From Eubacteriales bacterium (GTDB lineage: Bacteria; Bacillota; Clostridia; Oscillospirales; CAG-272): a stretch of 36,534 bases of DNA. Every line of letters starts with the position of its first letter. The first letter of the stretch is position 1. A model generated the notes under the pieces. That model worked only from the letters and a program-made list of their open reading frames with translations, ran no database searches and was not told the DNA's origin. A program made the translations under genes and the position numbers. Location: contig JAZNWS010000068.1 in NCBI GenBank assembly GCA_045593485.1, positions 1-36,534 on the forward strand, read 5' to 3'. This document shows positions 4,260 to 36,534 of this stretch, one piece after another.

Positions 4260-5177
4260 ATGAAAACAACACTTATTATAATGGCTGCGGGTATTGGCTC
4301 GCGCTACGGTGGCGGTATAAAGCAGCTTGCAGAGGTTGGACCTTCGGGCGAGATAATTCTTGATTATTCAATACACGACGCGCTCGAGGCAGGCTTTAAC
4401 GACGTAATTTTCATCATAAGACGCGACATAGAGCAGGATTTCCGTGAGGTCATAGGCAACAGAATGGAGAAAATATGCCCCTGCGCGTACGTTTTCCAGG
4501 ATATACACGACCTGCCCAATCACATGGTTATGCCTGAGGGCAGAACAAAGCCTTGGGGTACGGGTCACGCGGTGCTTGCCTGCAAGGGTACACTTAAAAA
4601 TCCCGGATGTATTATTAACGCCGACGACTATTACGGCAAGGAAGCCTTTGTTAAGATGCACGACTTTATCGTGAATAAGATGGACGTGAACAACACCGAG
4701 TGTCTTGACATCGCCATGCCCGGATTTGTTCTTAAGAACACCCTGAGTGACAACGGAAGCGTGACTCGCGGTGTTTGCAGGGTTGACGGTAACGGACATC
4801 TTACAGACATTGACGAAACCAAGAATATATACAAGGACGGCGAGGGTGCGTACAAGCTTGTTGGCGAGGAGAAGATACCTCTCGATCCCGATTCCGCTGT
4901 TTCAATGAATATGTGGGCTATCACTCCCGAGTTTGTCAACAGACTTGAGGCGGGCTTTACAGAATTTCTTGAGGCGGGCAATCTTGGTGACAAGAAGGCG
5001 GAATATCTGCTTCCCACAACAATCGGAGATATGCTGAAGGCGGGAACTGCAAAGGTGACTGTGCTCAGCACAAACGACAAATGGTTCGGCGTGACCTATG
5101 CCGAGGACAGAGCAACCGTTGCGGCAGAGTTTGACAGACTTGTAAAAGAGGGCGTTTATAAGACTCCGTTGTTCTAA
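4260..5177 (+). CDS. Nucleotidyltransferase family protein (sugar-phosphate NTP-transferase-like)
   Basis: N-terminal glycine-rich NTP-transferase loop LIIMAAGIGSRYGGGIKQL. The start was moved from the track ORF (4194) to the ATG at 4260, which follows AGGAAG and avoids overlapping the HIT gene. Confidence 0.7.
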   Translation: MKTTLIIMAAGIGSRYGGGIKQLAEVGPSGEIILDYSIHDALEAGFNDVIFIIRRDIEQDFREVIGNRMEKICPCAYVFQDIHDLPNHMVMPEGRTKPWGTGHAVLACKGTLKNPGCIINADDYYGKEAFVKMHDFIVNKMDVNNTECLDIAMPGFVLKNTLSDNGSVTRGVCRVDGNGHLTDIDETKNIYKDGEGAYKLVGEEKIPLDPDSAVSMNMWAITPEFVNRLEAGFTEFLEAGNLGDKKAEYLLPTTIGDMLKAGTAKVTVLSTNDKWFGVTYAEDRATVAAEFDRLVKEGVYKTPLF

Positions 5178-32251: not shown

Positions 32252-34072
32252 ATGTCACAGTCAGACAGAATGAAAAAAATCAGGAATTTTTCCATAATAG
32301 CCCATATTGACCATGGCAAATCCACGCTTGCGGACAGAATACTCGAGGCGACCTCGGCGGTGTCAAAGCGCGAGATGGAGGAGCAGGTTCTTGATAACAT
32401 GGACCTTGAGCGCGAGAGAGGAATCACTATCAAGGCGAGAGCTGTAAAGCTTGACTATACCGCGCCCGACGGCGAGCAGTATGTTCTCAACCTCATTGAC
32501 ACTCCCGGCCACGTGGACTTTAACTACGAGGTGTCACGATCCCTCAATGCGTGTGATGGCGCTCTGCTTGTGGTTGACGCCACGCAGGGAATAGAGGCGC
32601 AGACGCTTGCAAATGCGTATCTTGCGGTTGACGCAAACCTTGAGATAATCCCCGTAATAAATAAGATAGACCTACCCTCCGCAGACATTGAGCGAGTAAG
32701 GGCGGCAGTTGAGGACGAGATTGGCATACCTGCCGAGGACTGTCCGGCGGTATCCGCTAAAACGGGTCTTAACATACAGCAGGTGCTTGACGCGATAGTC
32801 CGCGACATTCCCGCGCCCCGAGGTGACGAAAATGCGCCCCTCAAGGCACTTATTTTCGACTCATATTATGACAGCTATCTCGGTGTCGTTGTAAACATCA
32901 GAGTTATGGACGGCTCGGTCAAGGCGGGAGACAAAATACGCCTTATGAGTACGGGTAGGGAATTTGATATAGTAGAGGTCGGCACTATGGAGGCGTTTGG
33001 TCTTTGCAAGTGCGAGTCTCTCTCGGCAGGCGAGGTTGGATATATCACCGCTTCCATAAAGAGCGTAGGCGACACACGTGTTGGTGATACAGTCACTCTT
33101 GCAAGCAATCCCGCCGATGAGGCGCTTCCCGGATTCCAGGCGGTTCAGCCTATGGTTTTTGCGGGAATATATCCTGCGGACGGAGCAAAATATCCCGATC
33201 TTCGCGATGCGCTTGAAAAGCTGCAGCTCAACGACGCAGCGCTCGTGTTTGAGCCCGAAACGTCTGTTGCGCTTGGCTTTGGATTCCGTTGTGGCTTCCT
33301 CGGACTACTTCACATGGAGATCATTGAGGAGAGACTTGAGCGAGAATTCAATCTGGATCTTATCACCACCGCGCCGGGCGTTATTTACGAGATAAAATTG
33401 CGCACGGGCGAGGTTATAAATATCGAAAACCCCTCAAACTATCCCACAGCGGACGAGATTGAGGAGGCAAGAGAGCCCATAGTTAAGGCAAGCATAATTA
33501 CACCCACCGACTACGTTGGCGGTCTTATGGATCTTTGCCAGGACAGACGCGGAATATTTATTGATATGAAGTATATTGACGCCAACCGCGTTGAGCTTCA
33601 CTATGACCTGCCTCTCAACGAGATAATCTATGACTTTTTTGATGCGCTCAAGAGCCGCTCGCGCGGATATGCGTCGCTGGACTATGAGCTCAAGGGTTAT
33701 CAGCCGTCTAAGCTCGTAAAGCTTGACTTTATGCTTAACGGCGAGCAGGTTGACGCGCTTTCCTTTATCGTTCACGAGGAAAAGGCGTACACCAGAGCGC
33801 GCAAAATTGCCGAAAGACTTAAGGAAAACATACCGCGTCAGCTCTTTGAGGTGCCGATCCAGGCGGCTATCGGATCACGTATAATTGCGCGAGAGACTGT
33901 CAAGGCTATGCGCAAGGACGTGCTTGCAAAGTGCTATGGCGGTGACATAACGCGTAAGAAAAAGCTGCTTGAAAAGCAAAAAGAGGGTAAGAAAAAGATG
34001 CGCCAGCTGGGATCGGTGCAGGTCACTCCCGAGGCGTTTATGGCGGTGCTTAAGCTTGGCGATGACAACTGA
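32252..34072 (+). CDS. lepA: Translation elongation factor 4
   Basis: 606 aa. GTPase motifs [21 protein letters not shown]. Characteristic LepA C-terminal domain. Confidence 0.97.
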
Positions 34073-35201
34073 TACACTGGGAATTTATATCCACGTGCCG
34101 TTTTGCGCGTCAAAATGCTATTATTGCGACTTTTGCTCCACCTCCGCGGCAAAGCGTGAGAAAATTGATGCGTACGTCAGAGCTTTGATAAACGAGATAG
34201 GCGAGTTTGCAAATAGGCACAATCAGAAATTCAAGGTTGATACCCTGTATTTCGGCGGCGGCACTCCAACGCTTTTGTCGGTTGAGAATTTTGAGGATAT
34301 TTTGTCCTGCGTGCGAGAGCGCTTTGAGCTTTTGCCAAGCGCAGAGATAACTGCAGAGGCAAATCCCAAAACCGCCGATTTTGATAAGCTTTTCAGTATA
34401 CGACAGCTTGGTATAAACCGTTTGAGTATCGGTATGCAGTCGGTGCATGACAGCGAGCTGAAGGCGCTCGGTCGAATCCATAAATTCAAGGATTTTGAGG
34501 ACTTTTACCTCGACGCGCGGCGCGCAGGCTTTGATAATATCTCGGTTGACCTTATGTACGGTATTCCCGAGCAGACTATGGATAGCTTTGAGGAGTCCGT
34601 CGCAAAGCTTACCGAGCTTGCTCCCGATCATATTTCCTCGTACTGTCTCAAAATTGAGGAGGGAACGAGGTTTTATCAGAAGCGTGAGTCACTCGCGCTT
34701 CCCGACGAGGACACTGTCTGCGATATGTACGAGAGCATGGGTAATATTTTGCGGGGCGCGGGATATAATAAATATGAGATAAGCAATTTTTCAAGGACGG
34801 GGCGTGAGTCACGTCATAATCTGAAATATTGGCAATATGACGACTATATAGGCTTTGGGTCAGGCGCGCATTCATTTTTTGAGGGCAAAAGATTTGCAAA
34901 CTCACGGGATATTGACGGATATATTTTGTCTGATGGTCTTGGCGAGCGTGAAAGCGAGGAGATAATTTCAGACTCCGAGGCAGAGAACGAATACGTTATG
35001 CTTGGAATGAGGCTTTCGCGTGGCGTTGATATTTCAGAATACAGGTCGCGCTTTGGGAAAAAATTTAATGAGAGATTTGGAAAAAAATTTAAAAAATTCT
35101 CTCCCGAATTTGTTGTTTTGAGTGAAAATAATTGCAGATTTACCGAAAGAGGAATGTTTGTAAGCAATTATATTCTCTCGGAAACCCTTGATTTTTCTTG
35201 A
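34062..35201 (+). CDS. hemW: Radical SAM heme chaperone HemW (HemN-like, oxygen-independent coproporphyrinogen oxidase family)
   Basis: 379 aa from the ATG at 34062, overlapping the lepA end by 11 nt. Radical [13 protein letters not shown]. The lepA-hemW pairing is conserved synteny. Confidence 0.9.
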
Positions 35202-35269: not shown

Positions 35270-35298
35270 TTGACAAGTCAGTAAAAATATGCTATAAT
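35270..35298 (+). promoter_or_regulatory. Consensus sigma-A promoter with extended -10
   Basis: TTGACA (35270-35275)-17 nt ending TGC-TATAAT (35293-35298). Confidence 0.65.
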
Positions 35299-35466
35299 AC
35301 AAGTGGATAAAGGGTGAGCCGAAAAAATTCACGGAGGAAGGCGTTAAGTGAGGTGACCGCGTCGGGTGTCGAGCGGTTTTCAAATGAGAAAAACGCTATG
35401 AATTTTTCGACGGCAAAGGAGGGAACTCCAAGCGACACCTAATAACCCGAAAGGAGATTTACACCA
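35299..35466 (+). other. Structured 5' leader of the DUF1292 gene, unclassified
   Basis: Nested helices: 35320-35331/35399-35409 (11 bp with one bulge), 35340-35345/35392-35397, and 35355-35360/35373-35378 followed by TTTT. There is also a GGAG-GGAA-CTCC hairpin at 35418-35429. Confidence 0.45.
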
Positions 35467-35760
35467 ATGAACGAACAAGAATTTGAAAGTGAATTTTATA
35501 CATTGACCGACGAGGATGGCAACGAAACTGAGTTCGAGGTTATCGGAAGCGCCGAGATAAACGGCATAGAGTATTTTGCAATGGTTCCGTCCGATGCGGC
35601 AGCGGGCAATGACGGTATGATAGAATATGTTCTTCTCAAGAAGGAGAAGGATGAAAGTGGAGAAGAAATGTTCGTCACTATCGATGACGATGACGAGTTT
35701 GACAGAGTTGCGGACTATTTTGACGATATGTTCGATTCTGAGGAAGACTACGATTCGTAA
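35467..35760 (+). CDS. DUF1292 family protein
   Basis: 97 aa, very acidic. The pattern TLTDEDGNETEFEVIG...GIEYFAMVP is typical of DUF1292. AAGGAGA SD. Confidence 0.8.
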   Translation: MNEQEFESEFYTLTDEDGNETEFEVIGSAEINGIEYFAMVPSDAAAGNDGMIEYVLLKKEKDESGEEMFVTIDDDDEFDRVADYFDDMFDSEEDYDS

Positions 35761-35878
35761 TTCTCGGTATAAGATTCACGGTAAACAAGGAATATGAGGC
35801 TGAAAGCCGAAAAAGAATAAGAACCAAGTGAACTTATTAAGGTCAAAGGAAAAAAGACCAATGGAAATCTAAACTTAA

Positions 35879-36122
35879 AAAAATCCTGCTTAGTTGGTGA
35901 TATCCGATTGATTGAGACCCACAACTGATTAAAGGAGCTCGAAATAAATTCGCGAAGTGGTTTGCAGACCTCCTCGCCCCGTGCGGTTGACTTGTCCCGA
36001 CGGGCCACGAGATGCTGGGAGCAGTGAAGCTTTGGATAGAGCACCGCCCTGAACAAACAGGGTTCCATTTCTACGGGTACACGGCTCGGTGGGGGTACAT
36101 ATCCTCGGATCGCAGGATTTTT
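35879..36122 (+). ncRNA. Candidate structured non-coding RNA (~245 nt, family unknown; 6S-like rod is one hypothesis)
   Basis: An 11-bp terminal helix AAAAATCCTGC/GCAGGATTTTT encloses stacked long-range helices and GC-rich hairpins, with AT-rich flanks. A plus-strand terminator lies downstream at 36193-36220. The strand assignment is tentative. Confidence 0.45.
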
Positions 36123-36192
36123 ATAAAAACTCAAATTTATTTTACATAAAAAACAAATTTAAGTTTTATACCTTACAATTGAATAGTAAATC

Positions 36193-36220
36193 AGGCTGTT
36201 GCGAATGCAACAGCCTTTTT
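36193..36220 (+). terminator. Intrinsic terminator
   Basis: AGGCTGTTGC-GAAT-GCAACAGCCT followed by TTTT. The T-tract is on the plus strand only. Confidence 0.85.
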
Positions 36221-36280
36221 ATGTCAAAATTTTTCGTGCTCTTGCATAAAATGGAACAGTAATTTGCGTTGAGGTCTGAG

Positions 36281-36534
36281 ATGAGGTTTTTTGCAAGGTG
36301 TTTTGCGCGGTTTTTTATATGTGCGGTATTTCTGTTTTTTTTGCTACTTAACTGTCTGTCACTCTGCACCTATGACGAAAGTGACACGGAAGGCGCACGG
36401 GAGTACATAATCACGTCGCTTTATGAGATGAGAGACAGTATAGATATTGAAGAATTTAATATACAAAAAACACAGCTTCTGCCTCTATTCACAGAGATCC
36501 TCAAAAATAACCCCTATCTGTTTTTTGTCGGTAC
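36281..36534 (+). CDS. Hypothetical secreted protein or lipoprotein, 3'-partial (runs off the window)
   Basis: ATG at 36281 with GAGG 6 nt upstream. Open to the window end (84 codons), starting MRFFARCFARFFICAVFLFFLLLNCLSLCTYDES... (signal peptide, lipobox-like LSLC). Not in the ORF track because no stop is reached. Confidence 0.5.
   Translation, partial: MRFFARCFARFFICAVFLFFLLLNCLSLCTYDESDTEGAREYIITSLYEMRDSIDIEEFNIQKTQLLPLFTEILKNNPYLFFVG

Follow-up and report, generated by a model that had tools for sequence, protein, structure and literature searches.

The element at positions 35880..36095 of the plus strand is, with a probability of roughly 90%, the 6S RNA gene (ssrS) of this organism, of a divergent type marked by its long apical arm, as judged from comparison of sequences. 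The window, by which we mean the whole stretch of DNA analysed (36,534 nt of contig JAZNWS010000068.1, from an Eubacteriales bacterium), had been described in a first-pass annotation as carrying at 35879-36122 an unclassified structured RNA of 244 nt within a GC-rich block. The block itself is well marked, with a GC content of 0.50-0.63 over 35900-36099 as against 0.25-0.40 in the flanks, and it is an ordinary 6S gene lacking a label and not a novel RNA class. That a structured non-coding RNA is encoded here on the plus strand was rightly proposed, as a conserved and covarying fold is found on that strand, and the remark that a rod with large internal loops recalls 6S RNA has been borne out by an Rfam match, by homologues above the Rfam cut-off and by a reciprocal model search. 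The objection that the element is too long for 6S RNA is mistaken, since the 244 nt were reached because a clade-specific 3' trailer was counted in; the conserved element extends only from about 35880/35885 to 36095. Its paired core spans 35885-36093 (209 nt), the likely ends of 35880 and 36095 give ~216 nt, and the overall range of about 211-216 nt is a normal size for 6S RNA, which is ~200 nt in length (PMC10578484).

The family had been left to a comparison with Rfam, and this comparison gave a divided answer. A scan of the whole window with Rfam 15 at gathering thresholds returned no match, whereas a permissive scan of 35700-36300 (permissive filters, E up to 10) matched the 6S/SsrS model (RF00013) at 35880-36099 of the plus strand, over model positions 1-187 of 187, with 30.9 bits and an E-value of 1.7e-4. 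This score falls short of the curated gathering score for 6S of 46.4 bits, which is an operational threshold and not a biological property. In the Rfam alignment, 44 nt of the window stand at the place of the model's 10-nt apical loop. Besides 6S, no family overlapped the core in the permissive scan at E <0.1; the remaining matches had E of 0.1 or more and were located in the AT-rich trailer. No model match to the core at E <0.1 was seen for tmRNA, SRP, RNase P, Ms1, raiA, Gut-1 or the rest of Rfam 15. The hallmark of 6S RNA is a rod in which a largely single-stranded central bubble lies between two irregular helical arms, and candidates found through Rfam require binding and product-RNA assays for full confirmation (PMC10578484). 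The consensus fold of the element has this architecture: a closing arm of 23 pairs and an apical arm enclose a bubble whose 5' strand consists of 18 unpaired nucleotides and whose 3' strand carries a hairpin.

Relatives were gathered via the adjacent HemW-like radical SAM protein (34062-35198), which yielded 80 loci from species-representative genomes. Clear DNA homologues of the element are present in 14 of the 80 (L001-L010, L012-L014 and L045), all of them in Clostridia, Oscillospiraceae or Eubacteriales genomes assembled from metagenomes, and all of them in the identical position 3' of hemW and of a gene for a DUF1292 protein. The regions downstream of DUF1292 in relatives, which the first pass had proposed to collect, thus hold conserved sequence and a covarying fold in these 14 syntenic homologues. 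Identity to the window element ranges from 74 to 96% and is confined to the core. In distant loci the similarity ends abruptly at window positions ~35879-35885 and ~36095, and in metatranscriptome contigs of other strains it is lost upstream of 35879-35883 and downstream of 36093. Position 36095 is supported as the 3' end of the 6S homologue, and the 5' end is uncertain to a few nucleotides. Three of the syntenic homologues pass the Rfam 6S cut-off by themselves (L010 with 53.9 bits, L013 with 53.4 and L045 with 59.4); the window aligns end to end with L010 and L013 at ~80% identity, and L045 is more distant.

Folding of the single sequence did not favour a structure. The 244-nt plus strand scored z = -1.32 against dinucleotide shuffles, 17 of 200 shuffles being as good, and the minus strand of the same 244-mer scored better (z = -2.64); the 215-nt core gave z = +0.27, and either strand of the core lies at z of ~0. 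The conserved fold, at -53.8 kcal/mol, is not the minimum-energy fold, which reaches -66.1 kcal/mol. As thermodynamics alone lends no support to the structure, the question of whether it is real was put to a comparison across genomes. In a MAFFT alignment of 15 sequences with 81% mean column identity (A1), the consensus obtained with RNAalifold is a 6S-type rod of 52 pairs (Table 1), in which 96.3% of cells are paired and compensatory changes occur at 19 of the 52 pairs. None of 500 shuffles equalled the observed values on any of five measures, and when partners were slid by 1-3 columns, pairing in A1 fell to 36-49%. An alignment of 27 sequences shows compensatory changes at 30 of the 52 pairs; it was fitted to the model and so leans towards the structure, and the unfitted A1 agrees with it in direction.

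Table 1. Features of the 6S element and of its surroundings in the window (positions are those of the window).
Feature	Position	Strand	Description
Sigma-A promoter	35270..35298	+	TTGACA (35270-35275), 17-nt spacer, TGc extended -10, TATAAT (35293-35298)
DUF1292 gene	35467..35760	+	97 aa; Pfam PF06949, 65.9 bits
5' strand of closing stem	35885..35915	+	Pairs with 36064-36093, small bulges; helices 1-2
5' strand of central bubble	35916..35933	+	18 nt, unpaired in consensus fold
Internal stem, apical side of bubble	35934..35940 with 36039-36045	+	Helix 3
Variable segment	35941-35953	+	Deleted in three relatives
Extended apical arm	35954..36033	+	Stacked helices 4-8
Helices of apical arm	35954-58/36029-33, 35962-65/36021-24, 35969-70/36017-18, 35973-76/36008-11, 35978-82/36000-04, 35984-86/35997-99		
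Apical loop	35987-35996	+	UUGACUUGUC, 10 nt
3' bubble strand hairpin	36046..36063	+	GCCCUG, 6-nt loop, CAGGGU; helix 9
AT-rich 3' trailer	36096..36192	+	Closest clade only; holds GCAGGATTTTT (36112-36122), complementary to 35879-35889
Intrinsic terminator	36193..36220	+	10-bp stem (36193-36216), 6 G-C pairs, then T-run

The support is spread over the whole rod. The 23 pairs of helices 1-2 are 96-97% paired, with compensatory changes at 7 pairs in A1 and at 13 of 23 among the 27 sequences, and in helix 3, where pairing reaches 100%, compensatory changes affect 2 pairs in A1 and 4 pairs among the 27 sequences. The 5' bubble strand holds an invariant A-C-C-N-A-C at 35917-35922 (columns A40, C41, C42, A44 and C45), which is ACCCAC in the window and is found in the version ACCAAC in canonical Clostridial 6S RNA. 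The apex folds in each sequence with its own pairs (CCCGU/ACGGG, CCUAU/AUAGG, CCUGU/ACAGG or CCCGC/GUGGG), and helix 9, which is 95.6% paired and has compensatory changes, is matched in the Rfam alignment with the corresponding hairpin of the 6S model. G-U pairs make up 9 of the 57 pairs of the conserved fold in the window, and the closing stem appears only when the plus strand is folded; together these fix the strand as plus. As a separate observation, the apical loop reads GACUUGUCCC without variation in 13 of 15 homologues (35987-35996 within 35984-35999), and in 10 homologues it contains UUGACU, which resembles a -35 hexamer and lies on the arm with which 6S RNA imitates upstream promoter DNA, although the resemblance may be fortuitous.

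A covariance model built from A1 alone (R1) was run over all 80 loci. It matches over their full length canonical 6S RNAs, scoring 97-109 Rfam bits, in 13 other Clostridia loci (L015, L017-L019, L021-L023, L025, L030, L032, L037, L040 and L043) with E-values of 1e-13 to 1e-16, and in the same range it matches one locus that lay outside the Rfam scan (L075). Beyond its training sequences, the full-length matches of R1 are exactly these canonical 6S RNAs and L075. The homology to Rfam-positive 6S RNAs and the reciprocal covariance-model search together place the element in the 6S family, and the label of an unclassified RNA can be withdrawn. Further members came from metagenome contigs scanned with a DNA pattern taken from the apical arm, from which 120 loci were fetched and all 120 searched with R1; the pattern was unspecific and gave mostly chance matches, 12 of the 120 loci holding real members. 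The Rfam 6S cut-off is passed by 7 of these 12 (46.4-57.4 bits), which brings the subgroup to 10 members above the cut-off and 17 not above it out of 27. The subgroup is divergent within 6S RNA, has a long apical arm and scores on both sides of the Rfam cut-off.

With this fold in hand, the pairing scheme of the first-pass annotation can be judged. All seven of its complementarities are present in the letters where it had placed them, but just one of the seven, the hairpin at 36047-36062, belongs to the conserved fold, where it is conserved and covarying in A1. The pairing of CCCAC with GTGGG is contradicted, as column pair 44-218 forms A-U in 7 sequences and no pair in the other 8. The 3' base of that column pair forms G-C or G-U pairs in the consensus closing stem, and in relatives with C at 36090 the CCCAC/GTGGG pair is broken and the consensus closing stem strengthened. 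The columns of GAGC/GCTC are invariant and GAGC covaries instead with 36039-36045, GAAGTGG/CCATTTC is paired in just 77% of cells in A1, and the hairpin at 35940-35952 is lineage-specific, being deleted in L008, L010 and L013. The two outermost helices (35879-89/36112-22 and 35902-07/36105-10) have 3' halves that are conserved solely in the five nearest relatives (L001-L005) and lie beyond the 3' boundary near 36095. By the A1 counts the columns of the scheme are mostly invariant or contradict it, and it was rejected for the 6S fold.

The outermost of these helices leads to the alternative that fares best, namely that the RNA is of 6S type and its mature form is the full 244 nt (35879-36122), closed by the 11-bp helix AAAAAUCCUGC/GCAGGAUUUUU, which together with its U-run would be the RNA's own terminator. 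The complementarity of 35879-35889 with 36112-36122 is real at 11 of 11 positions and is kept at 9-11 bp in L001-L005, despite a 10-nt insertion in L005; canonical Clostridial 6S RNAs do terminate in a closing stem followed by a U-run, and the minimum-energy fold of the 244-mer uses the 11-bp helix. The same helix competes with the conserved and covarying CCUGC/GYGGG pairing, shows no covariation but merely conservation among near-identical sequences, and is missing in 9 of the 14 syntenic homologues: neither L006-L014 nor L045 has it, and in these an ordinary terminator hairpin comes directly after the core. A mature RNA of 244 nt is accordingly unlikely. The complementarity is too long for chance and probably serves the precursor, whether as a helix for processing or, with its U-run, as a weak terminator.

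The probable 6S gene lies behind the DUF1292 gene, whose stop at 35760, as given in the first-pass annotation, was confirmed. A DUF1292 homologue is found directly 5' of the RNA in 15 of 15 syntenic loci and in 5 of 9 metagenome contigs checked, and the distance from the DUF1292 stop to the RNA is just 17-40 nt in five relatives. Between hemW and DUF1292 lies a sigma-A promoter with perfect consensus and an extended -10. When the 15 loci were scanned for matches of at least 10/12, beginning 450 nt 5' of DUF1292 and ending where the RNA starts, exactly one promoter per locus was found in 15 of 15, in the same place upstream of DUF1292 and with the 17-nt spacer and the TG. A simple scan of the window found no promoter just 5' of the RNA, and none of at least 10/12 lies between DUF1292 and the RNA in the 15 loci; weak -10-like hexamers upstream of the RNA, for example TAAACT at 35870-35875, may still play a part. 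On the 3' side, the plus-strand terminator already noted in the first pass was found again, and it is the probable end of the primary transcript.

Evidence from RNA consists of assembled metatranscriptome contigs, which are strandless, have flat depth and can contain DNA. At least 8 RNA runs have contigs that contain the element. These contigs start at 35322-35389, and none extends beyond 36186. One contig of 817 nt at depth 137 (X13) covers 35358-36095 and then continues as AGATCGGAAGAGCACACGTCTGA, which we take to be Illumina adapter; an adapter directly after 36095 implies that many sequenced fragments end exactly there, two bases past the last pair of the closing stem. Two others (X5 and X7) start at 35322/35389, cover both DUF1292 and the element and stop at 36169/36186, shortly before the terminator, so that the end at 36095 is not the sole form. 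These read through 36122 without stopping there, which again speaks against the 244-nt form. Because a single upstream promoter is found in 15 loci, the gaps between stop and RNA are short and contigs span both genes, DUF1292 and 6S appear to form one transcription unit, likely starting near 35305, from whose 3' part the 6S RNA would mainly be trimmed. The transcript would start at the promoter, run through DUF1292 to the terminator and then be trimmed to about 35880-36095. The possibility, raised in the first pass, that the RNA is processed from the DUF1292 3' UTR is in this way supported indirectly, by the contigs that span both and by the sole promoter lying upstream of DUF1292.

The same linkage could be read differently, the element being a cis-acting structured 3' UTR of the DUF1292 mRNA, such as a stabiliser or regulatory element, and not a trans-acting binder of RNA polymerase. 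It always follows DUF1292 in the syntenic loci and has no clear promoter of its own, and RNA contigs cover both, as such a reading would have it. Yet its sequence and fold are homologous to free-standing 6S RNAs of other Clostridia, which are placed upstream of lepA and have no DUF1292 in their vicinity, two metagenome members (L111 and L129) have no DUF1292 match upstream, and the RNA has a discrete end at the base of the closing stem, all of which makes a purely cis-acting element very unlikely. Weaker still, and hardly credible, is the reading of the minus-strand ORF at 35748-36134 as a real gene with an incidental structure, for although this frame is open in the window over 128 aa, it matches no Pfam family, the homologous frame in L002, L003, L006-L010 and L012-L014 contains stop codons or changes of frame, the boundaries of conservation are those of the RNA and not of the ORF, and substitutions compensate base pairs of the plus strand, G-U pairs included, so that the ORF was correctly dismissed in the first pass as an artefact.

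If the element is taken as 6S RNA within a DUF1292 unit, a broader reading may tentatively be put forward, which we regard as rather less than an even bet. In this Clostridial lineage, 6S RNA would lack a promoter of its own, and its source would be the 3' UTR of an mRNA that encodes a small acidic DUF1292 protein and is expressed from one consensus extended -10 promoter; DUF1292 and 6S would then share their regulation and might be linked in function, for instance via RNA polymerase or RNA maturation, and the enlarged apical arm with its invariant loop could add a contact on the side that mimics upstream promoter DNA. A search of a literature library found no paper mentioning 6S together with DUF1292.

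As summarised for the family, 6S RNAs bind the holoenzyme of the housekeeping sigma factor in a sigma-dependent manner, template product RNAs, and refold and are released once longer products are made (PMC10578484). Acting in this manner, the RNA would pose as an open promoter in the active site of the sigma-A RNA polymerase holoenzyme, and housekeeping transcription would thereby be damped at low nutrients. When NTPs return, the polymerase would copy the 5' bubble strand into a short product RNA reading 5'-GUGGGUCUCAAUC..., with a predicted start near C35922; this start is suggested because the ACCNAC motif is shared with canonical Clostridial 6S RNA and because the E. coli start position is adjacent in the Rfam alignment. 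The product RNA would then unzip the weak inner part of the closing stem (an A-U/G-U helix of 35910-35915 with 36064-36069), freeing the polymerase. Folding with the presumed footprint of the product RNA blocked gave no clear rearranged hairpin.

The closest known system is the canonical 6S RNA of Clostridia (RF00013), which shares with the window element the rod, the order of closing stem, 5' bubble strand, internal stem, apical arm and 3' bubble hairpin, and the motifs CCUGCNUAGUGCGUG, ACCNAC, ACC(G/C)(C/A)CCUG...CAGG and ACGGCU..GGYGGGG. The two are linked by the reciprocal full-length covariance-model match, and both reside in the lepA-hemW neighbourhood. They differ in that the apical arm of the window's group is ~35-40 nt longer and has its own conserved loop, which is the sole large difference in the model alignment; in that the group scores 31-59 Rfam bits as opposed to about 100 for canonical 6S; in that the window gene lies 3' of hemW-DUF1292, whereas the canonical gene lies upstream of the lepA position; and in that the window element has no U-run directly after its closing stem. 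The canonical 6S RNA was observed ~1.8 kb upstream of hemW (at ~950-1230 per locus, in the 13 canonical loci and L075), before the position of lepA in the window. With the canonical gene upstream and the window's gene downstream of hemW, 6S RNA is linked to the lepA-hemW neighbourhood on either side. In the window, lepA (stop at 34072) and hemW, with its likely start at the ATG at 34062, share 11 nt, an overlap that suggests coupled translation.

Two other 6S RNAs offer further points of comparison. In B. subtilis, 6S-1 (bsrA) is ~200 nt in length, binds the sigma-A holoenzyme and templates product RNAs of ~14 nt, and RNases shape both of its ends, RNase J1 the 5' end and 3' exonucleases the 3' end (PMC10578484). 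Like the window RNA it is a Firmicute 6S RNA of ~200 nt; unlike it, 6S-1 has a shorter apical arm and a function established by experiment, the window RNA being known from sequence. The motif ACC..AC that precedes the product-RNA start in the bubble of 6S-1 resembles that of the window, and bsrA is not known to lie behind a protein-coding gene in one transcript. In E. coli, 6S RNA is part of a longer transcript with a protein-coding gene and is cut out by RNases. This ssrS-ygfA linkage has been mentioned before (PMC10578484; PMC2848244), and the likeness lies in a 6S RNA that shares its transcript with a protein gene, as appears to be the case in the window. The order is reversed, as E. coli has 6S first and the ORF after it, whereas in the window DUF1292 comes first and 6S takes the position of a 3' UTR, and the family of the partner protein differs.

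In a whole lineage of gut and rumen Clostridia, the Rfam scores of 6S RNA thus lie around the cut-off or beneath it, and the chief value of the finding is in annotation. With 17 of 27 members below the cut-off, standard pipelines leave these genomes apparently without 6S RNA, which could be mended by adding sequences of the subgroup to the 6S seed alignment. In lactic acid bacteria, 6S genes missed at default Infernal thresholds have been recovered by a relaxed search in a conserved gene neighbourhood (PMC8414754); situation and method are the same as here, and the differences lie in the taxon (Lactobacillales) and in the neighbouring genes, which there are rarA and the gene of a universal stress protein. 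The rescue of sub-threshold 6S genes through synteny is established practice (PMC8414754), and 6S RNA itself is known. What is mildly new is the enlarged apical arm with its conserved loop, together with the conserved DUF1292-6S unit behind one consensus promoter, and the arrangement behind a single strong promoter gives a modest lead on the production of 6S RNA and on the function of the DUF1292 family.

Some minor observations concern the surroundings of the gene. The stretch from promoter to DUF1292 start codon is a GC-rich leader of ~160 nt (35305-35466) without an Rfam match; in relatives its length lies between 67 and 172 nt. Gut-1 RNA (RF01706), which has no match in the window, was found above its gathering score 16-20 nt 3' of the 6S homologue in two relatives (L008 at 4778-4852; L012 at 4783-4853 on the plus strand and at 4873-4958 on the minus strand). 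On the 3' side of the terminator in the window, an ORF runs from an ATG at 36281 off the window end (36281-36534) and has a hydrophobic, signal-peptide-like N-terminus (MRFFARCFARFFICAVFLFFLLLNCLSLC...).
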